The notes under the pieces are model-generated. The model saw nothing but the letters and a program-made list of their open reading frames with translations. It had not been told where the DNA came from and ran no database searches. Positions 4,303-58,495 of a DNA stretch of 60,996 nt are shown here, piece by piece. Origin of the DNA: Kiritimatiellia bacterium. Its GTDB lineage: Bacteria > Verrucomicrobiota > Kiritimatiellia > RFP12 > UBA1067. The translations under genes were made by a program, and so were the position numbers. The stretch is from positions 1 through 60,996 of the forward strand of contig JAFXXW010000007.1 of the NCBI GenBank assembly GCA_017542055.1, given 5' to 3'. Positions within the stretch are counted from its first letter, which is position 1; every line of letters starts with the position of its first letter.

Positions 4303-5201
4303 CGTCCTTGCACCTTGTAGCGAATGGTGAGCGACTCGCGCGAGAAGCGGTCGATGAATTCTTTGGAAAGTCCGCGCACGATGCCGACCGAACGGGCCAC
4401 GTCCAGCGCGGCGCGGTCGGAAATCTTGTCGCCGCAGGACTTGGCGAGACGCACGTCCACCATTCGACCCGAAGTGGCGAATTTGACGGACAGGTACACC
4501 GTGCCGTCCGCGCCCACTTTGGGCATCATGGCGTCCCATTTTTCGTTGAGCGCCATCTGGATGAGACTCACCCCCAGCTGCAGGTCGCTTTCGGCCAGCT
4601 GGTTGGCGGTGCCGGGCCTGTAGCCGGCGTTGAGAAGCTTTTGGATTTCCGCCTGCGACATCGTCTGCTTGGCAGTGCGACCGTTGCCGGTGGGAACGTT
4701 TTTGACCTTGATCTTCACTTCCTTGGCGCTCTCGCGCATCCGCTTGAGCCGGTCCTCCGGGGATTCCTTGGGCTTCTCCGGCTTTTTCTCCTCCTTGGGG
4801 GGATCGGGCTTTTTGACCTCGGGCTTCTTTTCTTCCTTGGGCGGGTCGGGCTTTTTGACTTCCGGCTTGGGCTTTTCCTTGACGTACTCCACCGCCTCCT
4901 GCTTGGAGTCGATTTTGGGAATCTCCTCCACCTTGGGCGGGTCGGGCTTTTTGACTTCCGGCTTGGGCGGTTCGGGTTCGGGGTTGTCGAGGGGCGGGGG
5001 CTCGTTGTCCACGCCGTCCAGATTCTCGTTGACGATCACGGTGAGGTCGATGGGGATCACCGTCTCCTTGGGCTGGAACTTGAAGAGCGCAATCGACGCG
5101 AGAATGGTGAAGAAGACGATATGCACCAAAAGCGAAACGCCCAAGGTAAAGGGCGAAACCACTTCCGGCGGACGGCTATCGGCTTCGGGCGAGTACATCA
5201 T
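4299..5201 (-). CDS. tonB: TonB-like energy transducer with Pro/Lys/Glu-rich repeat spacer
   Basis: ORF 4299..5240, start set at MMYSPEAD (5201, ATGA overlap with the exbD stop). It has an N-terminal TM anchor, KPEVKKPDPPKEEKK repeats and a C-terminal TonB/TolA-type domain. Position is directly after exbB-exbD. Confidence 0.7.
   Translation of the reverse strand: MMYSPEADSRPPEVVSPFTLGVSLLVHIVFFTILASIALFKFQPKETVIPIDLTVIVNENLDGVDNEPPPLDNPEPEPPKPEVKKPDPPKVEEIPKIDSKQEAVEYVKEKPKPEVKKPDPPKEEKKPEVKKPDPPKEEKKPEKPKESPEDRLKRMRESAKEVKIKVKNVPTGNGRTAKQTMSQAEIQKLLNAGYRPGTANQLAESDLQLGVSLIQMALNEKWDAMMPKVGADGTVYLSVKFATSGRMVDVRLAKSCGDKISDRAALDVARSVGIVRGLSKEFIDRFSRESLTIRYKVQGR
4793..4966 (-). repeat. In-frame coding tandem repeats inside tonB-like gene
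   Basis: Three copies of ccttggg(g/c)g(g/a)tcgggctttttgac(c/t)tc(g/c)ggctt start at about 4793, 4835 and 4931. They encode the KKPDPPK(E/V)E units. Confidence 0.8.
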
Positions 5202-7329: not shown

Positions 7330-8505
7330 TTAGCGGCTCTTGGCGAACGCCTGGATGGCGAAGTCGATATCCTCTGGCGTGTGGGCGGCCGACATCTGCG
7401 TACGGATGCGCGCCTTGCCCATCGGCACGACGGGATAGAAGAAGGCGGTGGCGTAGACGCCGTTCTTGTAGAGGTTTTCGCTCATCTTGACGGCCACTAC
7501 CGCGTCGCCCAGCATGACGGGAACGATGGGGTGGTGTCCGGGCACGAGATCGAAACCGAGCGCGGACATGCCGGCGCGGAAGCGCTTGGCGTTGTCGTTC
7601 AGGCGCTGACGGAGTTCCGGACGCGTGCGGACGAGCTCGATGGCCTTGATGGACGCGGCCGCGACGGGCGGGGGAACGGCGTTGGAGAAAAGATAGGGAC
7701 GCGCCTTCTGGCGGAGGATGTCCACGATCTCCTGGCGGGCGGCCACGTAGCCGCCGGAAGCGCCGCCGAGCGCCTTGCCGAACGTGCCGGTGATGATGTC
7801 CACCCGGCCGGTGACGCCGCAATCCTCCACGCTGCCCGCGCCGGTCGGTCCCAGCACGCCGACGGCGTGGGAGTCGTCCACCATGACGAGCGCCTCGTAC
7901 TTGTCGGCGAGGTCGCAGATTTCCTTCAAGGGGGCGATGATGCCGTCCATCGAGAACACGCCGTCGGTCACGATCAGCTTGAAGCGCGCGCCCGCCTCGG
8001 AAGCGGCGACGAGCTGCTTTTCGAGGTCGGCCATGTCGCCGTTGGCGTAGCGGAAGCGCTTGGCCTTGCAGAGCCGGACGCCGTCGATGATCGAGGCGTG
8101 GTTGAGCGCGTCGGAGATGATGGCGTCTTCGGCCGAGAGCAGCGCCTCGAACACGCCGCCGTTGGCGTCGAAGCAGGAACCGAAGAGAATGCAGTCGTCG
8201 GTGCCGGTGAATTCCGCCACCGTGCGTTCGAGTTCCTTATGGAGCGAGTCCGTGCCGCAGATGAAGCGCACGGAGCCCATGCCGTAGCCGTACTTGGCGG
8301 TGGCCTCGCGCGAAGCCTCCAGGATCTCGGGGTGGTTGGCGAGACCCAGATAGTTGTTGGCGCACATGTTCAGGAGCCCGGTGCCGTTGTCCAGCAACAC
8401 GCGGGCGCCCTGGGGGGTGGCGATGATTTTTTCGTTCTTGTAGAGACTCTTGGCCTTCAGGTCGGCGATGGTCTCCTGCAGATGGGCTTGGAATTTTCCG
8501 TACAT
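7330..8505 (-). CDS. kbl: Glycine C-acetyltransferase (2-amino-3-ketobutyrate CoA ligase)
   Basis: Alpha-oxoamine synthase features ([31 protein letters not shown]-lysine). Classic pairing with tdh. Confidence 0.9.
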
Positions 8506-8518
8506 TTTCGTTTCCTCC

Positions 8519-9547
8519 TTAAGCTTCCCAGTCGAGGATGACCTTGCCGGACTGTCCGGAGATCATGGCCTCGAAACCTTTTTCGAAGTCGGTGTATTTG
8601 TAGTGGTGGGTGATGACCGGGCTGATGTCGAGCCCGCCCTGGATCATGGCGCTCATCTTGTACCAGGTCTCGAACATTTCGCGTCCGTAGATGCCCTTGA
8701 TCTTGAGACCCTTCCAGACGATGTGGTTCCAGTTGACCCTGGTGTCGGGGCCGTGGATGCCCAGGAGCGCAATGCGTCCGCCGGTGTTCATGGCCTCGAT
8801 CATCTGGTTGAGGCAGGGACCGGCGCCGGACATTTCGAGGCCCACGTCGAAACCTTCCACCATGCCGAGCTCCTTCATGACGTCCTCGAGCTTCTCGTTG
8901 CGGGCGTTCACCGTGCGGGTGGCGCCCAGCTTTTTCGCGAGGTCCAGGCGGTAGTCGTTGAGGTCCACCACCACCACGTTGCGCGCGCCCACGTACTTGG
9001 AGATGCCGGCGGCCATGATGCCGATGGGACCTGCGCCGGTGATGAGCACGTCCTCGCCCACCATGTTGAAGCTCAGCGCGGTGTGCGTGGCGTTGCCGAA
9101 CGGATCGAAGATGGCGTAGAGGTCGTCGCTGATGGACGGATCGCAATGCCACACGTTGGATTCGGGGATGCAGAGATATTCCGCAAACGCGCCGTCGCGA
9201 TTGACGCCCACGCCCATCGTGTCGCGGCAGAGATGGCGCTGGCCGGCGCGGCAGTTGCGGCAGTGGCCGCAAACGATGTGGCCTTCGCCGGAGACGCGCT
9301 CGCCCACCTTGACGCTCTTGACGTTGGAGCCCACTTCCACCACTTCGCCCACGTATTCGTGGCCGATGGTCATGGGCGGCTTGATGGTTTCCTGCGCCCA
9401 GCTGTTCCACTCGTAGATGTGGACGTCGGTGCCGCAGATGGCGGTTTTCTTGATCTTGATGAGCACGTCGTTGATGCCCACCTGGGGGATCGGTTTTTCT
9501 ACCAGTTCAACGCCCTTTTGGGCGGCGGTTTTGGCAATTGCTTTCAT
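8519..9547 (-). CDS. tdh: L-threonine 3-dehydrogenase
   Basis: Zn-dependent ADH fold ([30 protein letters not shown]). Adjacent to kbl. An AGGA Shine-Dalgarno lies upstream. Confidence 0.9.
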
Positions 9548-29325: not shown

Positions 29326-29334
29326 TGAAGTAAT

Positions 29335-29363
29335 AGTATATCATATTCCGCCCGAAAAATCAA
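29335..29363 (-). promoter_or_regulatory. Promoter of the nifS-led gene array (TTGATT-17nt-TGATATACT)
   Basis: Reverse strand: TTGATT (29363-29358), TGATATACT (29343-29335). Only 9 nt separate the -10 box and the nifS ATG (29325). Confidence 0.6.
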
Positions 29364-29465
29364 GCAGAATCTTGGATTTTCGATTTATGATTTTCGATTT
29401 GCGATTGTCCAATCGACAATCCCTCAATACAATCCTAAATCTAAAATCGTAAATCCTAAATCACA

Positions 29466-29554
29466 GGGGGGGTGCCCACCCCCTCCACCTATCGCCCAAT
29501 AGGGCGTCACCCCCTCGCCCCGTATGGCGACACCCCGGGGGGTGCCCACCCCCC
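29466..29554. repeat. Two copies of palindromic GGGGGGTGCCCACCCCC box
   Basis: Copies at 29466-29483 and 29537-29554, 71 bp apart. GGGGGTG / CACCCCC arms. Confidence 0.8.
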
Positions 29555-29556
29555 TC

Positions 29557-29685
29557 GAAGGTCACCCCCTGCGCTCCGCGGAAGTCAACCCCCGCGCTCC
29601 GCGAAGGTCATACCCGTGCTCCGCAGAGGTCATGGGTCGGGCTCCGCAGAGGTCCAAACCAAGCTCCGCGAAGACCCTATCATAC
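29557..29685. repeat. Iteron-like array, family I (GCTCCGCRRAGGTCA, 5 clear units)
   Basis: GCTCCGC starts at 29573, 29596, 29618, 29641 and 29663 (22-23 bp period). Degenerate GTCACCCC-type units extend leftward to about 29500. Confidence 0.85.
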
Positions 29686-29700
29686 ACTCCGGGCGAAAAT

Positions 29701-29872
29701 TTCAATACCCAAAAAGTGTGTATTGAAACCGGGTTTAGGGCAATTCAATACACAATTTTGGTGTATTGAATGTGTATTGAAATGTGAAAAGGGTGTAAGC
29801 AGAAAGTGGTATAAAATCAAAAATAATGATAAATATTACTATATATTATACTACTATTTATTTTCAATACAC
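29701..29872. repeat. GTGTATTGAA boxes (6 copies, both orientations) flanking an AT-rich tract
   Basis: Boxes at 29701-08 (partial), 29716-27, 29744-53 (inverted), 29761-70, 29771-81 and 29863-72 (inverted). 29808-29870 is almost pure A/T. Confidence 0.8.
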
Positions 29873-29914
29873 CGTACACAGCCAAATACCCCCCTCTCCG
29901 AATTTTGCCCTTTT

Positions 29915-30484
29915 TTAGCCTTTTTTGAGAGAGGGGGGGTGTTGCGTGTGTACTGAGTGTATATTCACAAAAACGGCATTTTCGGCCCAGAGTTTGCGCA
30001 AGGCGGACACCATTCGCCCTTCGAAGGCGCTTGCTAGCTCTGGGGTGTCAAAGACAGTATCGGACGTTTTATCCAGAAAATGGAAATCTGTCAGAATCGA
30101 AATGAGCTCCCCATACACCTGAGCACAAATCGTTTTGGCGCGGGCGGCGGCATTAAGGAGGAACTTTTCCAGTGCCCGGCAGGCAATCTCGTGATCTTTG
30201 ATGACATTGATAAAGAGGTCGGTATCTTCCACGAGTTCGCCTGCTTCATCCTCGAAACTATAATCGAAAGCGGACGAAAACGCCAAACACTTGCAGATCC
30301 GGCCTAACGAAAGGCGCTCCAGCGGCTTCATATCGCCTTCGATCACGCATTGCGCAGCCTTGTCGAGCGCGACCAGGTCAGCTTGAATTTCCCCCGGAGA
30401 TCCAACTTTCCGGGTGTATTCCTCGCTCAATTCCCACTCGGCCGCTTCGTACGCCGACTCTTCCGTAAGTTTTTCGCTATTCAT
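29915..30484 (-). CDS. Hypothetical acidic protein (189 aa), no recognisable motif
   Basis: Only long ORF in this stretch. Lies 16 nt downstream of the helicase gene on the same strand. Codon usage is AT-richer than the core genes. Confidence 0.5.
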   Translation of the reverse strand: MNSEKLTEESAYEAAEWELSEEYTRKVGSPGEIQADLVALDKAAQCVIEGDMKPLERLSLGRICKCLAFSSAFDYSFEDEAGELVEDTDLFINVIKDHEIACRALEKFLLNAAARAKTICAQVYGELISILTDFHFLDKTSDTVFDTPELASAFEGRMVSALRKLWAENAVFVNIHSVHTQHPPSLKKG

Positions 30485-30500
30485 GATAAAATCGCTCCTT

Positions 30501-32276
30501 TCACGCCTTTTCGTTCAGGAAGTAAAGCTTGGCGCCTTGACGAAGACCCTGCTTTACGAGTATGAGCCCGCGCTCCACCAGCATCGCCTCGATATTGTCC
30601 ATTTCCTTTATGTCGGAAATATGGCTGCCTTTGGAGACCGTTCCACGTTTGAGTCCGGTGGGAACATTGTGCTCTTTGATATACTGGTAGACGCGCAAGA
30701 GCTTTTTCTCTTTTTCGTCCACGTTCATGAATTTCTTGGACTGCGCAATGACGCGCGCAATAATGGACTGACACAGTTCCCATGCCCAGTTTACGCCTTC
30801 GAGCGTGACGACTGGCTCTTTGGGATCTTGACTGATGGCGTAGAGGAGCGCCAGCTTGCCCGTCTGCTCGATCGCGCGACCCCAAATGGCCATGCCGGAA
30901 TCGTCGCCCTTGCGCGAGAGTTTGTCGATGAGCGCGTCCATCTGCTTGGCGAGCTCTTTGAAGCGCTCCTTGACGCCGGGACCGTCCTGCGCGAGTCGGC
31001 GTTGGGGCATTTCGCGATCGAAGAAGTCGGGGTTGAGTTCGATCGTCTTATGGAGGTCGTCCACGAGTTCCGGGGGAATCGTCACCGCCGCTTTGCGATC
31101 TTCGTTACGCTTCGGGAGTAGGCGCGTTTCGATGATGACGCAGCGATTCAAAAGTCCGCTCAAAATCGTCTTTTCGGTAATTTCCTCGTAAAAGAGCGTG
31201 GGCGTGGCGCAGCCGAAAATGGTGAGGGATGGATTCACGGCCACCGGGGCGCTCTCGCTTTTGCCGTAGCTCGATTTGGCGCGGGCGCGGGCGCGATGGA
31301 CCGTTTCGCTGGCGGAAAAGATTTGCAAAAGGTAGTTGTAGAACGCATCCCCGCCGCCCTGCCGCTTGTCGTTCATGACATGCAGGAGATTGCTGATTTC
31401 ATCGATCTGGAAGATGGCGCTGGGCGATTCGATGATAGCGTCTTCCGTGGCTTGGCCGGACGCAGGCTGCTCGTAGAACGACCGGGCGATTTGCAGTTTG
31501 TGTCCGATGGCCATATTGACCGAGCGCGGCTTTTGCTTGCCGAAGGTTGAGGGCGCCACCAGGATGATGTAGAGGTTGGGGTACGTGCCGCGCGAGTCGG
31601 TGTAGTTGCGTCCGGCGAGGTGCGAAAGGACAGCGAGTGCGCCCGCGAGCGCGATGGCGCGGTTGGGGTGGACGGCGCTTTCCAGGGTGACGTTCATGAT
31701 CCGGTCGATGAGACCCGGCACGTGCGTGAGCTTTTCGGGCGTGGAATAGAGGTCGGCGAGGTTTTCCTCTTCGTTGGACGCGAGCTCGCCTAAGAGCGAG
31801 GCCACGGCGCGATAGTCGGCGCGCAGGACATCCATTTCGCGCTGGAGCGCGTCCACCCGGAGACCGACGGTCAGCGAAGGATCCTGCATGATCCGGATGA
31901 TGTGCTCCTGGTAGTTGCCGAACATGTCGGCGAACTTGAGGAACGCCACGTCTTCGACGTCGATCTTTTCGGGCACGGAGTCCACGAGTCCGCTAAAGGT
32001 GCGCCGGGGGTCGTCGCAGTTGCGCGCGAGGATGTTCTGACGCGTTTCGCGCGCGTCGTCCGTCTCTTCGTCGCCCGCTTTGAGGATTTCGGGGAAGGCG
32101 TCGCGGAATACGGGATCGTTGAATTTTATGCTTTCGAGCCCCGCTCCCAAAACGATAGGAAACATGGCTTTCGGACGGAATACCATCGCAGCGATAACCC
32201 GTGTCTCGCGCCGCTGCCGCTCGAGCTTGATCTCGGCTTGCAGTTGTTCCTGCTTCTTCTGTTCTTCTTCAGTCAT
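30501..32276 (-). CDS. DUF3987-type (P4 alpha / VirE-like) replicative helicase with DnaB-N-like start and C-terminal winged-helix
   Basis: P-loop LVAPSTFGKQKP, Walker-B-like IFQIDEISNLL, then NPSLTIFGCATP and LLNRCVIIE segments resembling Pfam DUF3987. The N-terminus (ETRVIAAMVF...IKFNDPVFRDAF) resembles DnaB-N. Recognised by eye only. Confidence 0.55.
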   Translation of the reverse strand: MTEEEQKKQEQLQAEIKLERQRRETRVIAAMVFRPKAMFPIVLGAGLESIKFNDPVFRDAFPEILKAGDEETDDARETRQNILARNCDDPRRTFSGLVDSVPEKIDVEDVAFLKFADMFGNYQEHIIRIMQDPSLTVGLRVDALQREMDVLRADYRAVASLLGELASNEEENLADLYSTPEKLTHVPGLIDRIMNVTLESAVHPNRAIALAGALAVLSHLAGRNYTDSRGTYPNLYIILVAPSTFGKQKPRSVNMAIGHKLQIARSFYEQPASGQATEDAIIESPSAIFQIDEISNLLHVMNDKRQGGGDAFYNYLLQIFSASETVHRARARAKSSYGKSESAPVAVNPSLTIFGCATPTLFYEEITEKTILSGLLNRCVIIETRLLPKRNEDRKAAVTIPPELVDDLHKTIELNPDFFDREMPQRRLAQDGPGVKERFKELAKQMDALIDKLSRKGDDSGMAIWGRAIEQTGKLALLYAISQDPKEPVVTLEGVNWAWELCQSIIARVIAQSKKFMNVDEKEKKLLRVYQYIKEHNVPTGLKRGTVSKGSHISDIKEMDNIEAMLVERGLILVKQGLRQGAKLYFLNEKA

Positions 32277-32286
32277 AGCGCCTCAT

Positions 32287-32316
32287 ATTATACCATATTT
32301 TCCGCCCCTTTGTCAA
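32287..32316 (-). promoter_or_regulatory. Promoter of helicase gene (TTGACA-18nt-TGGTATAAT)
   Basis: Reverse strand: TTGACA (32316-32311), TGGTATAAT (32295-32287). 10 nt separate the -10 box and ATG 32276. Confidence 0.65.
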
Positions 32317-32318
32317 GT

Positions 32319-32535
32319 CCCAATTCCCCCGCGGGACATTTCCCAATTCCCCCGCAGGACTTTTGCCAAATCTCCCGCAGGACTTTCCCCAATTCCCCCG
32401 CAGGGCTTTCCCCAAGTCTCCGTGCAGACTCCAAAAAGTCTACACGCTCACTTTGCAAAGTGTGCACGTAAACTTTCAAAAGTCTACACGCTCACTTTAC
32501 CCAAGTCTCCGTGCAGACTTTACAAAGTCGAGACG
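32319..32535. repeat. Iteron-like array, family III (~10 contiguous 21-24-bp units, CCAAnTCTCCnnGCAGACTTT / AAAGTCTACACGCTCACTTT)
   Basis: Unit starts at 32319, 32342, 32366, 32388, 32411, 32432, 32455, 32477, 32499 and 32521. The same family recurs at 56978-57063. Confidence 0.85.
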
Positions 32536-32551
32536 ATAAATATGTTTGACT

Positions 32552-33901
32552 CTATGCCTTTTTCTGCATACTCATTGCCGAATAGCCGGCAAGTATAGCG
32601 AAGAACGGGATCATTATGTACCTATAACGAGTTGCCGTAATCGGGCCAATGACAGCTGCGAGCAGGATGATACTAAGCAAAGGACTCAATACCAACAAGT
32701 AGCCGCCAAACGACAAGTCTTTATATCGCCGTATGCTTTTAATTGCGCCAATCGCTACCAGCAAATATCCTCCCAGCAGAACCAGCCAACTTACTATCTG
32801 CACACCGGCACCAAGCGCCTTTTCGCCTAAGGTATATGGCGTTTCATATTGCACCTGGTAACCGCGCGCCACACCTGAACTCCACATGTTGTCAAGCGCG
32901 TCGCAAGTTCTTTCCAGTCCCAAGTATCGCAGCAATGCAACCGTTCCGGTTCCCGCATACAAACGCGGATGGGTTTTCGCCGTATATATCATATACTCCG
33001 GCAGGTGAGCCATTAATTGCTCCCGCGCATACTTACCCATAAGTTTCGACCGTTTCATCAAATCGTAATCGGCAATTTCACTTTCAAACCGTTCCATATC
33101 GGCGAGAACCGCTTCCTTCTCTCCGACCGGGAGCAGCTGCGCCAGCCTCCCCCAATTGCAACTGTAAAGATTGGTTCCGGAAATCGACGTAATTCCGGCT
33201 GTTCCAAATGCCAACTTGTTTCTGACCATCCAAGGACTCAAACCAATCGCCACTATCGCAACCCCGGCCACTACCATTGCCAGTTTCTTTTTCCAGGTTG
33301 ACCCATACACCAGTATCAGCGCCAAGATAAACGCCAATGCCAACGGGATGCAAATTGGCTTGGCATAAATTGCCACCACAAAGGAAATAAACGAGCCAAT
33401 CAAGCACTTGACGTTCCCGTTAACCCCTCTAAAATAAAGCCACAACGCCACTATCACCGAAGACACCGCCAACTGATCGGGCATGTGGAATAGCGAATAA
33501 ATAACCGTATCGGGCATAAACAGCAATACCGCCACGCCTAACGTAATTTGAGTATCTCCAAACGAAAACGGCTTGTTCCGGAGCAAAGCAATCATTGCTA
33601 TAATGCCTACTACCACCAACAGAATATTGATTAATCCCGCAATATGCTGAGTGGCCGGCACCGAACCGGTAGCCCAATAGACCGCTGCCATTATTCCTGG
33701 CCACAACGGCATGTCGTGGGCAGATGGCATCGGGGCGTCAGACTGCGCAGTCGAAAACACCCCATGATCGATTAGATTGATACTTTCCGTCAGATAGCGA
33801 AGCCCATCATCACCCTCCGGCGAAGATTGAAATGCCCATAGGCACAGTCGCAACCCCACCCCGGCAATTACAACCCACTTCAACCACTTACTTCCCTTCA
33901 T
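32552..33901 (-). CDS. Polytopic GT-C-type glycosyltransferase (ArnT/PMT/GT39-like)
   Basis: ORF 32552..34099 trimmed to [11 protein letters not shown] (33901). Roughly 11-12 TM segments with an early acidic loop ([11 protein letters not shown]), as in GT-C enzymes. Family call is by architecture only. Confidence 0.5.
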
Positions 33902-35411
33902 GATATTCTTCCTCGGTATTGACGTTCCAAACTGTGGATTTGGCGGTTTCACCCAAGAGCGCACGAACCGCCTCGATGCCGCAAAGCATGGAGTGGTCCA
34001 TATTGTTATAACGATGCTGCCCGTTCCGGCCAATGCAGTAGAGGTTACCGAAACCATCCAGCCAATCGCGCACCTTGCCGAATTCGGCATAGGAACCAAA
34101 ATAGGCGGGATAAGCCTTCTTCACCTTGATGCGAACGCTCTTGATGACCGGCTCGTCCGCTCCCAACACCCCGATATGACGCAACTCCTCAACCGCCATA
34201 TCGATGAATGGCTTGTCTTCCATCGTCCAGAACTTGTCCCCTTCCGTGCAGAAGTATTCAAGCCCCACCCAAACATGCTTGGTAACATCGTCCACCATAT
34301 AAGGCGACCAGTTGTTGAAGATTTGGATGCGACCCATCCTTACGTCACGCTCCTGCACGTAGATCCAAGTGTCGGGTACGATATTGTTGACCGTCTTGAA
34401 CTGCGTCTGATTCTTGATGGCCAACTTGTCGACCAACAGGCCCACCGTGATAAAGTCGCGATAAGGCAACTCTGACGCGATTTTGGCTACTTCGGCCGGT
34501 TTCTGGTCGAATGCGGCAACCAGGTCTTTGACCGGCATCGAGGAGAAGACCGCATCGCACTCGAGGCGCGTACCGTCTTTCAGCTTGACCGCCTTTACCT
34601 GTCCGTCTTTGGTCTCGATGCCGACCGCTTGCGCGTTCATCCGCACCTCTACGCCCATACCGCGCAATTTGGCCGCCATAGTCTCCCAAAGCTGTCCCGG
34701 GCCTTTCTTGGGATAGATAAACTCGTCAATCAGCGAGGTTTCCTTCTTGCCGCCTTTGGGGATGAAAATGTTGAGGATGGCCTTCCACAGCGAGAGACCC
34801 TTTACTCGCTGGGCACCCCACGAAGGATCGATTTTGGACGGATGGATGCCCCACAACTTCTCGGTATAGTCCTCGAAGAACATCGAGTAAAGCACCTTGC
34901 CAAAGCGATTGATATAAAAATCTTCCAACGAGTTTTCGGGCCGCTTCTTGATTGCGCTATAAAGATAACTCCAACCGGCTTTCCAGGTACGAATCAGCCC
35001 CATCGCGATAAAGGTGGCCGGCTTGATGGAAATGGGATAATCGAAGAAATGGCGCAGATAGTAGATGCGGCTCACGCGATGCCGGCGCAGCATCACTTCG
35101 TCGGTCTCTTCCGGATCGGGACCGCATGCTTCCACGTGACATTCGCGCCCGAGGATCGTGTCATCCTTGGCGGGCTTGCCTTGAATAGGCATCAGCTCGG
35201 CCCAAAGATCGTTCACCTCTTTCGACTTGGAGAAGAACCGATGCCCTCCAATATCGATGCGGCATCCCTCATAAACCGCAGTGCGCGAAATGCCGCCTAT
35301 TTCGGATGTCTCTTCAAGCACCACCACATCCCAATCCCGGGCCTTGCGCTTCAGTTCGTACGCGGCAGTAAGTCCCGCCGGACCCGCCCCGATAATAACG
35401 GCTCTTTTCAT
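33888..35411 (-). CDS. NAD(P)/FAD-dependent oxidoreductase (amine-oxidase / UDP-galactopyranose-mutase-like fold)
   Basis: N-terminal dinucleotide-binding motif [16 protein letters not shown]...[10 protein letters not shown]. 507 aa, soluble. Confidence 0.7.
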
Positions 35412-35857
35412 TTGTTGCCAACTCCTTTGTCATTGAAAATAAGCAGCTTGCGACCTAGATAATTCCACACCAGCACAGCACCGGTCACGAATACTTTGAC
35501 TATCATATAATTCCAATCGAGAATCTCAATGCCGAACCACATACCAATCTCGGTCAGCACCAGGCCTAAGAGCCCGATTATCCCAAAGACCAGAAACGCC
35601 CCGAAGCTACGCCCCTTCCCTTTATCCTTCGCCTGCGTGAACACAAACCACAGCGATAGCGCGTAATTGACCGCCAACCCGACGATAAAGCCAAACACGG
35701 TTGCGATATACACGCCCAGCGCCCAGTCCTTGAGAAAACACTCCTGCACCAACACCAACGTTCCAAAGTCCGCCAGAAAAGCGATCCCGCCCACGATAAC
35801 ATAACGCAAAAACTCACCTGCCAATATCTTGGCCGATGCAACTACGCCTGTCTTCAT
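35408..35857 (-). CDS. gtrA: GtrA-family membrane protein
   Basis: 149 aa with four TMs. N-terminal [17 protein letters not shown] motif typical of GtrA-like proteins. GGAG Shine-Dalgarno upstream. Confidence 0.7.
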
Positions 35858-36164
35858 TATCGTTTACGCTCTCCTTTCCGCCCCTCCACCCGCACGGAAA
35901 AGAAAAAGGGCGATTCTAGTCCGTGTCTCAAGTGAGGCTCTGGAATGCCCGATACGAAACACGTTAGAATACGCCCAGAGGACGCACTCCATACCATGTG
36001 TGACTCGTATCGTAGAAATTTTCCAGATTTCACTTGAGCCAACATAGCAGAATGCTAAGTTGAATTGTCGCGCTCCTGCACTCGCAGTGGCGACGCGTGC
36101 CGGGTAAAGACTCCCATCTTCCCGGCTATGACAAAGATCAAATCGGGGGATTTCCCCGTTAGAT
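35858..36164 (-). other. ~305-nt untranslated leader (possible cis-regulatory RNA) between promoter module B and gtrA
   Basis: No convincing ORF. The minus-strand transcript contains hairpins CGGGGAAAUCCCCCG, GCCGGG-16nt-CCCGGC and GUCGC..CUGC-GAGU-GCAG..GCGAC. Confidence 0.4.
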
Positions 36165-36165
36165 G

Positions 36166-36275
36166 CTAATATTATACCATATTCCCACCCTTTCCGTCAA
36201 GCGGAAAGTGCGAAAACTCCTAAACTCCAAAACTCCCCCGAGCGAAAGCAACTCCCCTCCCCGTCAAGCGGGAAA
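36166..36275 (-). promoter_or_regulatory. Conserved promoter module, copy B (TTGACG-18nt-TGGTATAAT plus upstream tract and second CCGTCAAGCGG box)
   Basis: Reverse strand: TTGACG (36200-36195), TGGTATAAT (36179-36171). CCGTCAAGCGG boxes at 36194-36204 and 36261-36271, 67 bp apart, as in copy C. Confidence 0.65.
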
Positions 36276-55540: not shown

Positions 55541-55927
55541 TTACTCGGCAGCCGGCACCGCCTGTTGCTGGGCCGCGGCCTCGCGACGGGCCTGACGGTC
55601 GGCGCGGGCCTGACGCTCGGCGGCGATCTTGGCCTCGCGGCGCTCGTCCACCGCCAGGATCTGCACGCGGAAGACTTCTTCCACCAGATGGTAGCGGTTC
55701 ACGAGTTCTTCCATCTTGGCCGGATCCAGCTCGAAGCGGACCTTGACGTAGGCGCCGGAATCGCGCTTCTTCATGGGCCGCGCGAACGCACGCTTGCCCA
55801 ACGCGTCCTGACCGATGACCACGCCGCCCAGGCGGGTCACTTCGGCGAGCGCGCGGTCCAGATTGGCCTGCAGCGTCTCGTCGCGGTTGACGCCGACGAA
55901 AATATAGAGCGCATCATACTTTTTCAT
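55541..55927 (-). CDS. rpsF: 30S ribosomal protein S6
   Basis: ORF 55541..56161 trimmed to MKKYDALYIF. Sits in the S6-SSB-S18-L9 conserved order. Confidence 0.9.
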   Translation of the reverse strand: MKKYDALYIFVGVNRDETLQANLDRALAEVTRLGGVVIGQDALGKRAFARPMKKRDSGAYVKVRFELDPAKMEELVNRYHLVEEVFRVQILAVDERREAKIAAERQARADRQARREAAAQQQAVPAAE

Positions 55928-56565
55928 CACTTCTTCACCTCTTCTTCCTTGCCCTTCTTGATCACTTCGGGAGCCTTCTCGCCCTGGGCCGCGCCGGCCG
56001 GCGCGTCTTCCGGAGCCTTGACCACCGCCAGCGCCAGTTCGCCGCGCGTAACCACCGTCTGCTTGTCGCCAAGCTGCAGGTCGCGCACGAAGAGCGTCTG
56101 GTCGAGACCGAGACCCGACACGTCGATTTCGAATTTCTCCGCGATATCCTCGGGCAGGCACTCCACGTCGATCGTACGGAGCACCTGCTCCAGCACGCCG
56201 CCGCCCAGCTTCACGCCGACCGCTTCGCCCACGAGATACACCGGAACCGTCACGCGCACCTTTTCGGTCAGCGACACTTCGCTGAAGTCCACGTGAATGG
56301 GCGTACCCGCCAGCACGTCGTTCTGCATTTCGCGCATCAACGCCGGAACTTCCCGGCCGTCCATATCCAGCGTGACGAGCAGCTGCTTGCTGGCGTGTCC
56401 ACGCATGGCCATCATGAAGTCGTGCGCCGGCAGCTTGATGAGCTCCGTCCCGCCCTTCCTCATTTTCATGACGCTGCCGGGTATCATGCCCGTGCGGCGC
56501 AAACGGCGAACCGCCCCCGTACCTTGCTCGGTGCGAGGCTCCGCCTTGATCCTGATCTGATCCAT
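55927..56565 (-). CDS. rplY: 50S ribosomal protein L25 / general stress protein Ctc
   Basis: 212 aa with RRLRRTGMIPG... and HVDFSEV motifs, plus the long Ctc-type C-terminal domain. Confidence 0.85.
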   Translation of the reverse strand: MDQIRIKAEPRTEQGTGAVRRLRRTGMIPGSVMKMRKGGTELIKLPAHDFMMAMRGHASKQLLVTLDMDGREVPALMREMQNDVLAGTPIHVDFSEVSLTEKVRVTVPVYLVGEAVGVKLGGGVLEQVLRTIDVECLPEDIAEKFEIDVSGLGLDQTLFVRDLQLGDKQTVVTRGELALAVVKAPEDAPAGAAQGEKAPEVIKKGKEEEVKK

Positions 56566-56639
56566 TTCTTGCCTTTTTTGGTAATTTTCCGCCTACTCTC
56601 GCGCACCCGCGCTACCCTCTGCGGCTAAAACAGTTGTAT

Positions 56640-56669
56640 ATTATATCATATTCCCCGCCCAAAAGTCAA
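56640..56669 (-). promoter_or_regulatory. Promoter of the rplY-led 17-gene array (TTGACT-18nt-TGATATAAT)
   Basis: Reverse strand: TTGACT (56669-56664), TGATATAAT (56648-56640). A leader of about 68 nt precedes the rplY ATG (56565). Confidence 0.65.
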
Positions 56670-56806
56670 TAGGGAAAATGAAAAAACGCATTATCCCCAT
56701 TGGCAATTGGATCTATCCGCCACTAGGTGATGTACTTTTAGTGTCAATCTTCCGGTTCCAATCCCTCCCCACCACCACCCTTCTCTCCCCTGCAGTTCAA
56801 GCAAAA

Positions 56807-56950
56807 AGTGACACATTTTTATCATTAAGGTGACACCTTTTAACCTTTACGGTGACACCTTTTGACCATTTTGGTGTCACCTTTTCTATCAAACGGTGTC
56901 ACCTTTTACCACTAAATGTGTCACCTTTCACATCAAAAGGTGACACCTTA
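56807..56950. repeat. Seven GGTGWCACC(TTTT) sites at exactly 22-bp spacing (family IV)
   Basis: Core starts at 56807, 56829, 56851, 56873, 56895, 56917 and 56939. The centre base is A,A,A,T,T,T,A. The first and sixth cores are slightly degenerate. Confidence 0.9.
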
Positions 56951-56977
56951 CGCATCATCTCCCCCAGCCAGGCAATA

Positions 56978-57063
56978 CAAAGTCTCCCCGCCGACAGTTC
57001 AAAGTCTACGCGCACGCTATTGAAAGTCTACACGCAAACTCTCCCAATTCTCCGTGCAGACTA
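56978..57063. repeat. Family III repeat array, second locus (4 units)
   Basis: Units: CAAAGTCTCCCCGCCGACAGTT, CAAAGTCTACGCGCACGCTATTG, AAAGTCTACACGCAAACTCT, CCCAATTCTCCGTGCAGACTA. Same orientation and family as 32319-32535. The last unit overlaps the acyltransferase stop codon. Confidence 0.8.
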
Positions 57064-58173
57064 CCTTCCGCCGAACAGGATGCCGGCAAATTTAGGCAAG
57101 TAGCGTCTGAGCAGCAAGGTGATTGCAATCGCCCCGCCAAAACTGCCGGCAAGGCTAATAAACGCCGCCCGGATTTCCGGCACCGGGATATGCTTGAACG
57201 CGATGCCAAAATAGACAAGGAGCACGATATGAATAAGAAAAACAGGAAACGAGCACGCAGTCAGCCACTTGGGCCATTCGCTTGTAGGCGTGATGCTCCA
57301 AACCAGGTATAGCAAGCACGGAACTGCGAACTTGCCAAGCGCGATTTCGCCGCGATATCCTTTATAGGCAAAAAACAACTTGAGAACCAGCAAGCCCAAT
57401 CCGGCTATTCCGCACCAAAGCGCAACCTTCCGCCCTTCGATTTGCGGCTTGAACTTCTGAATAAATACGCCAAGTGAAAAGTAGACTATGCCGCCAGCCG
57501 AATATCCCATCCGGAAGAACTCGCGCCAATTCTCGGTCGGCAAGTGATTCTGTACGAGCGAAAACGCAAATGCCAGCCCCAACCACCAATACTTGAATCG
57601 CCCCACTCCCCATTTGAACAACCAGCCAGTCAGCACGAACAAAAAGAGACATCGTACATACCACAAGGGGACGTGGCCAGGAAATTCGGTCAAGTCCAGT
57701 CCCCAAAAACCAAGCGGATTGTGAGCTACGCAAATGTTGGTTCCAAACGGACGATGCGCAATCAAATCGGCGATAATGCTCAATGGCATAGTAGCAATCA
57801 ATGTTATGGCCGACCACAACACAAACGGCACCACCAATGATTTTATGCGTTTCGTGGTTTCGCGTCGCCACCAATCCTGCTCCTCGAAGTGTTGCGCAAG
57901 GAAGAAACCGGAGACAACGAAAAAGAACGGCACGGCAATCCGCGCAATTCCCTCTTCCATAAATTCCTGCATAAACCAACCAAGCGACAGCGCTTGCTCG
58001 GCCGGCCATGAGATATGTATCACGACCACCAAGAACGCGCATATAAGACTCATGTTCTTGATCTTCTGACTGGACTCTGCGGAAATCTGCATCTGGCACC
58101 TGACATTCTCGCGCGTGGTTATCGCCCAACCGAATGCCGGGTGCATAAAAAGAGCGCATTTCAATCCATGCAC
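57061..58173 (-). CDS. Acyltransferase family 3 membrane protein (O-acetyltransferase of surface glycans type)
   Basis: About 10 TMs, early LICAFLVVVIHI segment and FFFVVSGFFL motif typical of acyltransferase_3. The start may instead be MQISAESS at 58092. AT-rich codon usage. Confidence 0.65.
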   Translation of the reverse strand: MHGLKCALFMHPAFGWAITTRENVRCQMQISAESSQKIKNMSLICAFLVVVIHISWPAEQALSLGWFMQEFMEEGIARIAVPFFFVVSGFFLAQHFEEQDWWRRETTKRIKSLVVPFVLWSAITLIATMPLSIIADLIAHRPFGTNICVAHNPLGFWGLDLTEFPGHVPLWYVRCLFLFVLTGWLFKWGVGRFKYWWLGLAFAFSLVQNHLPTENWREFFRMGYSAGGIVYFSLGVFIQKFKPQIEGRKVALWCGIAGLGLLVLKLFFAYKGYRGEIALGKFAVPCLLYLVWSITPTSEWPKWLTACSFPVFLIHIVLLVYFGIAFKHIPVPEIRAAFISLAGSFGGAIAITLLLRRYLPKFAGILFGGR

Positions 58174-58382
58174 TCCCTCGATGCCCTACCACAGGCCCAA
58201 TACGAATACACGAAGAAAAAATGCGCCCAGAATAGACGCATCTTCACTTGCACATCGCTCGTATTTTTGAAATAGTGGTAGTATTTCGAGGGAACGACTT
58301 GTTAGCGTTGATGCTAAAATCGATGTGATGCGGAAGAACGTGTCTACCCGCCCATCCTTAAGGATTTCTCCCCTAAGAACAC

Positions 58383-58495
58383 TGATATTATATCATATTT
58401 TGCCCCTCCCCGTCAAGCGGAAAGTGCGAAAAATCCCCGACTCCGAGACTCCCAACAGCGAAAGCAACTCCCCTCCCCGTCAAGCGGAAAGCGGG
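58383..58495 (-). promoter_or_regulatory. Conserved promoter module, copy C (TTGACG-18nt-TGATATAAT plus upstream tract and second CCGTCAAGCGG box)
   Basis: Reverse strand: TTGACG (58416-58411), TGATATAAT (58395-58387). CCGTCAAGCGG at 58410-58420 and 58477-58487 (67 bp apart). The intervening tract is related to copies A and B. Confidence 0.6.

Follow-up and report, generated by a model that had tools for sequence, protein, structure and literature searches.

Regularly spaced binding sites are well known from plasmids. The γ origin of R6K contains seven 22-bp iterons, which are bound by the π protein, and pPS10 and pSC101 carry autoregulatory iteron arrays of their plasmid initiators. The sopC centromere of plasmid F comprises twelve 43-bp units with a palindrome in each, and parC of R1 and pSK41 is likewise a partition centromere. 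As to nucleoid-associated proteins, Fis sites are found upstream of rrn P1, and IHF and Fis sites precede strong promoters.

A second body of background concerns the HU-HIG clade of the HU/IHF superfamily. Structure 4FMR is that of BVU_2165, which belongs to the Ig-fused subclade of this clade (Burroughs et al. 2017, PMC5499826). It was argued from this structure that the Ig domain narrows the HU clasp, so that DNA binding by Ig-fused forms is unlikely, and a role of HU-HIG proteins as sequence-specific transcription factors was judged improbable (Burroughs et al. 2017, PMC5499826). Our literature searches found no cis-element reported for HU-HIG, and PF14848, DUF4469 and HU-HIG were never tied to repeat arrays in the searchable literature. 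The same searches found nothing on tandem repeats of Kiritimatiellia and, for the 9-mer described below, returned primers only.

The locus considered here lies in a 60,996-bp stretch of DNA (as a whole, the window) of an uncultured gut/rumen bacterium of the Kiritimatiellia. Among species representatives, the closest, with L25 up to 89% identical (93% over a partial match), are without exception rumen and gut MAGs of the Kiritimatiellia/Verrucomicrobia type. Around the array lie the L25 operon and genes that encode a SpoU methylase, an antiporter and an acyltransferase. Read on the minus strand, the order is SpoU methylase, Acyl_transf_3 gene, three family III repeats, array, a 125-bp spacer, promoter and L25-S6-SSB-S18-L9. 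The main features are as follows.

55927–56565, minus strand: ribosomal protein L25 (Ctc) gene, the first of its operon, downstream of the array
56640–56669, minus strand: L25-S6-SSB-S18-L9 operon promoter, TTGACT-N18-TATAAT, the -10 being preceded by TG
56795–56948, minus strand (register read in the direction of the flanking genes): seven-unit array, 154 bp, 22-bp period
56967–57045, no strand assigned: family III, three ~22-bp repeats, CAAAGTCTnC...
57019–58456, minus strand: low-GC cassette with the Acyl_transf_3 gene (57061–58146/58173) and its own promoter (58387–58416)

The array thus has the L25 promoter on one side and the family III repeats on the other, as the preliminary description had it. 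Counted from the start codon of L25 (56565) up to the stop of the acyltransferase gene (57061), the non-coding gap, put there at 380 bp, measures 495 bp; counted from the promoter, it measures ~390 bp. The promoter core of L25 is a near-identical promoter sequence that occurs in multiple copies within this genome. A search for synteny upstream of L25 across 80 related species found none. A coding role for the array was considered and rejected, as it is crossed by just two spurious ORFs of 51 and 83 aa.

In the minus-strand register, the repeated unit can be written as (A)GGTGWCACC, followed by K/TTT, a spacer and AAA. The seven cores of the array are the following.

56807–56815: core 1, AGTGACACA, imperfect; in sister strains AGTGACACC or TGTGACACC, one base off
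56829–56837: core 2, GGTGACACC
56851–56859: core 3, GGTGACACC
56873–56881: core 4, GGTGTCACC
56895–56903: core 5, GGTGTCACC
56917–56925: core 6, TGTGTCACC, imperfect; in sister strains the perfect GGTGTCACC
56939–56947: core 7, GGTGACACC

Seven phased GGTGWCACC palindromes had been claimed for this segment. The phasing is exact, the heptamer GTGWCAC being present in all seven cores at steps of precisely 22 bp, but full palindromes number only five (56829, 56851, 56873, 56895 and 56939), sites 1 and 6 being imperfect. Five exact matches compare with 0.43 expected, and at least five were seen in none of 100 shuffles. Nor is the motif common or unphased elsewhere in the 61-kb window, where no further GTGWCAC occurs. 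The 22-bp period was detected by Tandem Repeats Finder as well, and the autocorrelation of the 154-bp array peaks at lag 22 (0.69, vs 0.22–0.36 at lags 19–25). The leave-one-out similarity of units to their consensus is 13–16 of 22 positions across exactly seven units and falls to a background of 6–9 of 22 in neighbouring registers. The GC content of the array is 0.38, that of the adjoining DNA 0.48.

The order of the central bases of the cores (A, A, A, T, T, T, A) proved to be as first read. A CTTTT tract had been ascribed to every core; a T-tract does follow most of them (TTTTT in site 1 and TTTT in sites 2–5), but site 6 has TTTC and site 7 has TTAC. Since several units also have an A-rich left flank, the full unit approximates a longer palindrome, AAAnGGTGWCACCTTTT. 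The proposal that all sites face one side of the helix needs a small correction: at 10.5 bp per turn, a 22-bp step rotates successive sites by ~34 degrees, or ~200 degrees over the array, so that the sites spiral and do not strictly share one face.

A metagenome scan revealed homologous arrays in at least six other flanks (L162, L163, L164, L165, L166 and L178), as well as in L176, which is the window locus in another strain. In L164, the end of the array reads TTTTGC-TTGACT-N18-TATAAT, and a gene matching Pfam HU-DNA_bdg follows. Ten homologues of the L164 protein (P0001–P0010; 36–100% identity) were each looked up on their own contigs. An upstream 22-bp array is present in 11 of the 11 genes of this subfamily of HU-Ig proteins (HU domain with an Ig-like domain) for which upstream DNA is available; with the exception of L221, where it reaches the start codon, it finishes at the -35 of the gene. 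In all nine complete HU-Ig arrays, the autocorrelation is maximal at lag 22 (0.57–0.83) and consensus similarity delimits exactly seven units. In L164, L189 (P0001), L220 (P0002) and L217, L218 and L219 (P0003), an array with the GGTGWCACC core runs up to the promoter of an HU-DNA_bdg gene, with the junction TTTTGC/G-TTGACn (TTGAC(T/C/A))-N18-TATAAT. The more distant homologues (36–56% identity) are also preceded by 22-bp arrays, but with cores other than GGTGWCACC. By protein, the cores are as follows.

P0001–P0003 and the L164 protein: upstream core GGTGWCACC
P0004: upstream core GGTGGGACC
P0005 and P0006: upstream core CATAsTATG-like
P0007–P0009: upstream core GTCWGAC
P0010: upstream core AAAGGTnnnACCTTT

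These five core classes follow the clades of the HU-Ig proteins, while units are alike within an array and the geometry is constant between clades. Cores that co-vary with the clade under a fixed geometry, next to a gene for a member of a DNA-binding superfamily, are the signature of a cognate protein–site pair. It should be noted that simple co-divergence of linked DNA could account for part of the co-variation. The link appears to be specific to this subfamily, since two HU-Ig genes of Parabacteroides have no array upstream; on the evidence of these two genes, a generality across Bacteroidales is not borne out.

The proteins themselves are readily placed. All ten homologues match Pfam HU-DNA_bdg (PF14848), one matches PF18291 and four match DUF4469, in a layout with HU-DNA_bdg at the N-terminus and an Ig-like domain at the C-terminus. 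In a profile search of the PDB, 4FMR was the sole match, and the top Foldseek matches of a structural model were the four 4FMR chains (E = 1e-9). The model is good in the C-terminal β sandwich (pLDDT about 90) and poor in the N-terminal domain (pLDDT about 45). P0001–P0010 thus belong to the Ig subclade of the HU-HIG clade. They share with it the domain pair and 4FMR as the best fold match, as well as the rapid divergence, the absence of conserved operon partners and the location in variable regions described for the clade. They differ from it in the linked 22-bp cis-array, which the two Parabacteroides members do not have; the published analysis had predicted that the clade has no role as sequence-specific transcription factors (PMC5499826). 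The array-linked subfamily is small: a search of 1.84 billion representatives gave 13 clusters at a cutoff of E <= 1e-30 and 91 when this was relaxed to E <= 1e-10; no relatives were found in viral contigs or, with P0003 as the query, in plasmids.

The linkage in 11 of 11 genes and the co-variation of core and clade make the HU-Ig protein the likely cognate binder of GGTGWCACC arrays. Arrays of the same design are also found before genes of other kinds. In L133, which is from another species, a seven-unit 22-bp array with the core CCAATGsGCATTGG ends 16 bp before the -35 of L25, which means that such arrays also serve, or at least occupy, non-HU promoters. In the window, 24 kb from the array, four 23-bp units made of different repeats abut the -35 of a DUF3987 helicase gene. 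Both observations would suit a reading in which some other trans-acting factor binds the arrays and the HU-Ig genes are its regulated targets, not its source. The case made from 4FMR against DNA binding by Ig-fused HU proteins fits this reading too, and the use of the same 9-mer at 22/23-bp spacing by phage HTH_36 initiators makes another binder conceivable. However, five core classes that track HU-Ig clades are to be expected of a cognate pair and are hard to explain by an unlinked regulator, and the adjoining gene encodes a member of a DNA-binding superfamily. We regard an unrelated binder as distinctly improbable.

If HU-Ig proteins are the binders, the most likely mechanism is cooperative binding by seven HU-Ig dimers. 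We infer that one dimer would occupy each near-palindromic core, AAA-GGTG-W-CACC-TTT, and that the two-turn spacing would allow the cooperative assembly of seven dimers into a filament or a wrap of ~154 bp. At an HU-Ig gene, such a complex would touch the -35 and presumably autoregulate the gene.

The comparison with plasmid iterons is instructive in this respect. As in the iterons of R6K γ, pPS10 and pSC101, the repeats are direct and have a two-turn period of 22 bp, and here, too, they number seven; the array of an HU-Ig gene abuts the promoter of its presumed binder, so that binding would be autoregulatory. Unlike in plasmid iterons, the cores of the units are palindromic, the linked protein is of the HU fold, the locus is chromosomal and orphan copies exist; moreover, no Rep-family protein is encoded, and neither an AT-rich unwinding element nor a cluster of DnaA boxes is clearly recognisable. 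Analogously, sopC of F and parC of R1 and pSK41 consist of tandem units, each with a binding site, which adjoin and regulate the promoter of the operon of their binder, whereas the present arrays have no ParA/ParM partner and no plasmid context, and the protein fold is a different one. The parallel with IHF and Fis lies in the stacking of candidate sites of the nucleoid-associated type upstream of the -35 of a translation-machinery operon and, for IHF, in the A/T tracts that flank the core. The array differs in being made of seven identical phased units with palindromic cores instead of a few dispersed sites, and the copy in the window lies 126 bp from the -35 of L25, with no evidence of activation.

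That copy differs from the arrays at HU-Ig genes in what follows it. Two further features border it.

56795–56800, minus strand: vestigial -35 hexamer TTGAAC, in the junction TTTTGC-TTGAAC, with no -10 following
56949–56966, minus strand: flanking sequence GGGGGAGATGATGCGTA, which precedes the array in the sense of the genes and is conserved in L189, L162, L165 and L166

The window array shares with that of L189 the flank GGGGAGATGATGC and the junction TTTTGC-TTGA(A/C)C; these two features and the GGTGWCACC core are homologous to those of L189, L164, L217 and L220. No functional -35/-10 promoter adjoins its last unit, the nearest being that of L25, with its -35 126 bp from the array end. Neither tblastn nor profile HMMs found an HU-Ig homologue in the window, in agreement with the initial remark that no cognate gene is adjacent. 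Elsewhere, homologous arrays directly precede an HU-Ig gene, with a core that co-varies with the protein. With neither a -10 nor an HU-Ig gene after TTGAAC, the window array is an orphan copy of the HU-Ig-gene array in which all seven cores and both junctions are kept.

Among the other Kiritimatiellia loci examined, members of the subfamily were found in none except L164, L166 (a fragment) and L189. The other orphans, in L162, L163, L165, L166 and L178, are also complete. Each orphan has the 3′ end of a low-GC accessory gene on one side and the next promoter on the other, and in five of seven cases the -35 of this promoter is 120–176 bp away. Among the genes that flank the arrays to the left or right are GT2, TIR, a hexapeptide acetyltransferase together with GT4, and a DUF433/DUF5615 toxin-antitoxin pair.

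In our opinion, the array in the window is an orphan of the seven-unit cis-element of HU-Ig genes that probably still serves as a platform for an HU-Ig protein whose gene lies elsewhere in the genome, the most likely role for this copy; we put the probability of this reading at roughly 0.6. The copy would have lost the -10 and the gene while keeping the seven cores and both junctions, and would now provide an extra platform between a hot spot for accessory cassettes and the promoter of the L25 operon, where it might affect L25 or the cassette. In run X10, the dominant strain of this species has no L164-type HU gene at >=80% nucleotide identity. The P0003 contigs derive from two samples that also contain this species, a co-occurrence that is only suggestive of a P0003-type gene in its genome.

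The alternative closest to this reading is that the array is a dead relic, i.e., the leftover promoter region of a deleted HU-Ig gene, which is decaying and is no longer bound effectively. Such a fate would account for the vestigial -35 with neither a -10 nor a gene behind it and for the imperfection of two of the seven cores in this strain; it would also agree with the polymorphism of the array among strains, which is ~3.5 times that of its flanks. The distribution of the changes argues otherwise. Seven sister-strain contigs (six with an identical SpoU protein and L176, a strain variant of the same locus) span the intergenic region fully or nearly, at 97% identity and with no indels. Wherever a sister-strain contig covers the site, it contains the array. 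Of its 14 variable sites within the species, none falls on the 63 inner core positions (P = 4e-4), and seven fall on the outer core positions 1 and 9 (P = 2.5e-5).

The same pattern is observed between contexts. Across seven independent ones (the window, L162, L163, L164, L165, L166 and L178), each array has seven units with no indel; in the resulting 49 units, positions 2–4, 6–8 and 11 are invariant, whereas spacer positions 14–19 and 22 carry little information. The conserved core is 13 bp long, and the spacers drift while the phase is kept, which answers the check on related genomes proposed at the outset. Homology between contexts stops ~15 bp from the array on one side and ~30 bp on the other. 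Six orphan copies in different contexts have retained seven units with no indels despite diverged spacers, and the array is also kept in a strain without the adjacent cassette. On balance, a dead relic seems unlikely. The general reading as a cooperative protein-binding array, offered at the outset, is upheld by a core and a 22-bp phase fixed in seven contexts and by strain polymorphisms that avoid the inner core.

The position of the array next to a variable cassette requires separate consideration. The cassette is present in this strain, as well as in all ten contigs encoding the identical SpoU protein, and absent from the dominant strain of run X10. In this run, which covers the species ~360-fold, position 57018 is joined to 58457 via 14 bp at 258-fold depth. 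The joint means that the acyltransferase gene and its promoter are absent from the X10 strain and that the array is retained, and hence the array is not part of the acyltransferase cassette. The idea that the array is a piece of this mobile cassette is accordingly ruled out. The last family III repeat is part of the cassette, the junction of which lies inside the family III block.

The array might still mark a place where accessory cassettes recombine or land, or might be a partition centromere. Landing is suggested by the constant position of orphans, with the 3′ end of a low-GC accessory gene before them and a promoter after them, and by a cassette indel 70 bp from the array, and a centromere by the tandem palindromic units, which resemble those of sopC/parC-type centromeres. 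The cassette junctions (57018/57019 and 58456/58457), however, fall in other repeats and not in the array; neither a recombinase or transposase gene nor a Par gene such as ParA/ParM was found beside the window array or any other copy; and the same array is also present at ordinary gene promoters. Both roles are highly improbable.

A replication origin is the remaining candidate of this kind, namely an iteron origin (of the lambda O/HTH_36 or R6K γ type) of an integrated or helper-dependent element, the initiator of which would be supplied in trans, e.g., by a phage. It is encouraged by the seven 22-bp iterons of R6K γ and by viral sequences: pairs of GGTGWCACC at a 22-bp distance are found in 66 viral contigs, as against 7 for a permuted palindrome and 20 for the same core at 26-bp spacing. 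In nine of the ten tested, the viral arrays lie inside HTH_36 or Phage_rep_O genes, some of them beside perfect DnaA boxes, which identifies them as lambda-O-type origins. Such phage origins, in which the iterons are inside the O/HTH_36 gene, resemble the array in the window in the 9-bp palindromic core and the 22–23-bp spacing. They differ from it in consisting of 3–6 units, in their mixed 22/23-bp spacing, in their location in coding sequence and in a binder of another family; most have no T-tract, the T-tract variant being found in one viral contig only. Matches of the hairpin AGTCTCCGTGCAGACT and of the family III repeats in viral contigs were at chance level or absent.

Neither the window nor any array-bearing Kiritimatiellia locus encodes an HTH_36, O-like, Rep_O or Rep protein, and together with the differing geometry this makes the viral arrays look-alikes and the phage-type origin a minor rival. 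A clear cluster of DnaA boxes is not seen either. A one-mismatch DnaA box, TTATCCCCA (56691–56699), lies 96 bp from the array edge and 108 bp from core 1, but the window contains three such boxes, compared with 4.3 expected, so that a single one is within chance. Moreover, the array lies outside the neighbouring mobile cassette, and its exact seven-unit geometry fits the arrays of HU-Ig genes instead. We consider an iteron origin very improbable. The kinds of array first proposed (iterons, centromeres and repressor filaments) thus lose ground, because no replication initiator, Par or repressor gene is found beside any Kiritimatiellia copy. In our reading, the array of the window is neither an origin nor a centromere nor part of a mobile cassette.

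An RNA element was also considered and rejected, the best Rfam matches scoring 14–26 bits vs gathering scores of 41–440. No intrinsic terminator was found between the acyltransferase stop and the array. In metatranscriptome data, the contig of the L25 transcript ends at 56615, just past the predicted start site, and no contig extends over the array, which is weak evidence. With no significant Rfam match, no terminator and no transcript over the array, a role at the DNA level is the sensible reading.

The orphan in the window, which we take to be a retained platform for an HU-Ig protein, is in itself a copy of uncertain consequence. The wider significance lies in the family. The HU-HIG proteins, to which no function has been assigned, represent a large expansion of the HU superfamily that evolves fast, and the sole published analysis speaks against sequence-specific binding. 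One HU-HIG subfamily now has an invariant cis-partner, i.e., seven 22-bp units that end at its own -35 and have a core that tracks the clade. No earlier report of a cis-array linked to HU-HIG proteins was found in the searchable literature; by analogy, the element would work like an autoregulatory iteron or operator array. A protein of unknown function thereby becomes one partner of a directly testable protein–DNA pair, for which the 154-bp substrate is defined and specificity variants occur in nature, and the arrays hint at the DNA recognised by a little-studied family of HU-like proteins. The HU-Ig link also explains why 22-bp tandem arrays are unusually frequent in the related gut Kiritimatiellia loci sampled (16 in 805 kb, vs 3–4 at periods of 19 and 20 bp).

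The location of orphans beside accessory cassettes and upstream of a ribosomal-protein operon suggests a regulatory or architectural role. It is conceivable, although at present doubtful, that this HU-HIG subfamily consists of sequence-specific binders, seven dimers of which would assemble on each cognate 154-bp array with a specificity that varies from clade to clade, and which, in addition to autoregulation at their own genes, would occupy orphan arrays and act there as boundary, silencing or regulatory elements. If true, this would fit the earlier prediction that the HU-HIG clade handles invasive DNA, and it would amount to a system of nucleoprotein "punctuation" for the variable regions of the genome, with orphans placed between low-GC accessory or defence cassettes gained by horizontal transfer and the promoters of core genes.

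The Acyl_transf_3 gene, together with its own promoter (window 57019-58456), is a presence/absence polymorphism: in the dominant strain of sequencing run X10 (~360x), position 57018 is linked to 58457 via 14 bp, GCCGAAAGGCCCAG. The junctions of this cassette lie within the family III repeats and within a common promoter module; none is located at the GGTGWCACC array. The promoter module, which is ~110 bp long and common to unrelated accessory cassettes, includes the 18-mer CCCCTCCCCGTCAAGCGG (window positions 36254, 58403, and 58470) and may be a recombination substrate for cassette exchange. Its copies are found in the window and in three contigs that carry orphan arrays, i.e., arrays not followed by a gene for an HU-DNA_bdg plus Ig-like (HU-Ig) protein:

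Window 58380-58495, promoter module
Window 36160-36275, promoter module
L162 4999-5050, promoter module
L166 7437-7491, promoter module
L178, promoter module

On the other side of the array, the promoter core of L25, first gene of the L25-S6-SSB-S18-L9 operon, reads TTGAC-N18-TGATATAATAT (window 56638-56686). Because read depth in X10 rises ~8-fold above the flanks at this core, and short-read contigs end there, we infer that this strong promoter has several near-identical genomic copies. Among 80 related species (L073-L152), no synteny between species was found upstream of the L25 operon, and the contig ends 800 bp or less upstream of L25 in 14 of the 80, making this region a breakpoint or variable hot spot. 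In several species (L120, L121, L133, L147), 22/23-bp arrays built on different palindromic cores lie upstream of L25.

Variation of the array itself was assessed by comparing window 56807-56960 with L176, a strain variant of the same locus, and with L180 and L184. Half of the variable sites (7 of 14) fall at the two ends of GGTGWCACC, its first G and last C, where changes are for the most part G>T or C>A, while positions 2-8 and 10-12 of the unit are invariant among the compared strains. The outer variation could arise because the 5' G of GG is subject to a mutational bias, or because affinity is under selection. Iterons of the GGTGWCACC type, spaced at 22/23 bp, also occur inside the HTH_36 / Rep_O initiator genes of many unrelated phages (IMG/VR contigs L006-L071; GC 36-70%), in some of which (L020, L023, L034, L037, L043, L052) perfect DnaA boxes lie beside them.

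Other tandem arrays of the window, with 2-5 units apiece, periods of 14, 22, or 23 bp, and differing cores, each follow the 3' end of a cassette gene and precede the next promoter. Two features listed with them are a low-GC island, which looks like a mobile-element remnant with glycan-modification cargo, and a 42-bp tandem repeat, probably within a coding region:

4776-4881, 42-bp tandem repeat, 2.2-2.5 copies
29330-36275, low-GC island, including a 189-aa ORF
29375-29660, tandem array
30501-32276, DUF3987 helicase (island), matching a phage "DNA primase" family in its C-terminal part only
32318-32415, tandem array, four 23-bp units immediately adjoining the -35 of the helicase gene
32434-32519, tandem array
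32552-34099, PMT_2-like glycosyltransferase (island)
33888-35411, FAD oxidoreductase (island)
35408-35857, GtrA (island)
56967-57045, tandem array

In L166, a truncated HU-Ig gene fragment (8012-8530), neighboured by a four-helix-bundle gene (7573-8079), also adjoins the cassette promoter module and lies 2.6 kb from the orphan array. This fragment and its neighbours suggest that HU-Ig genes are themselves broken by cassette turnover.
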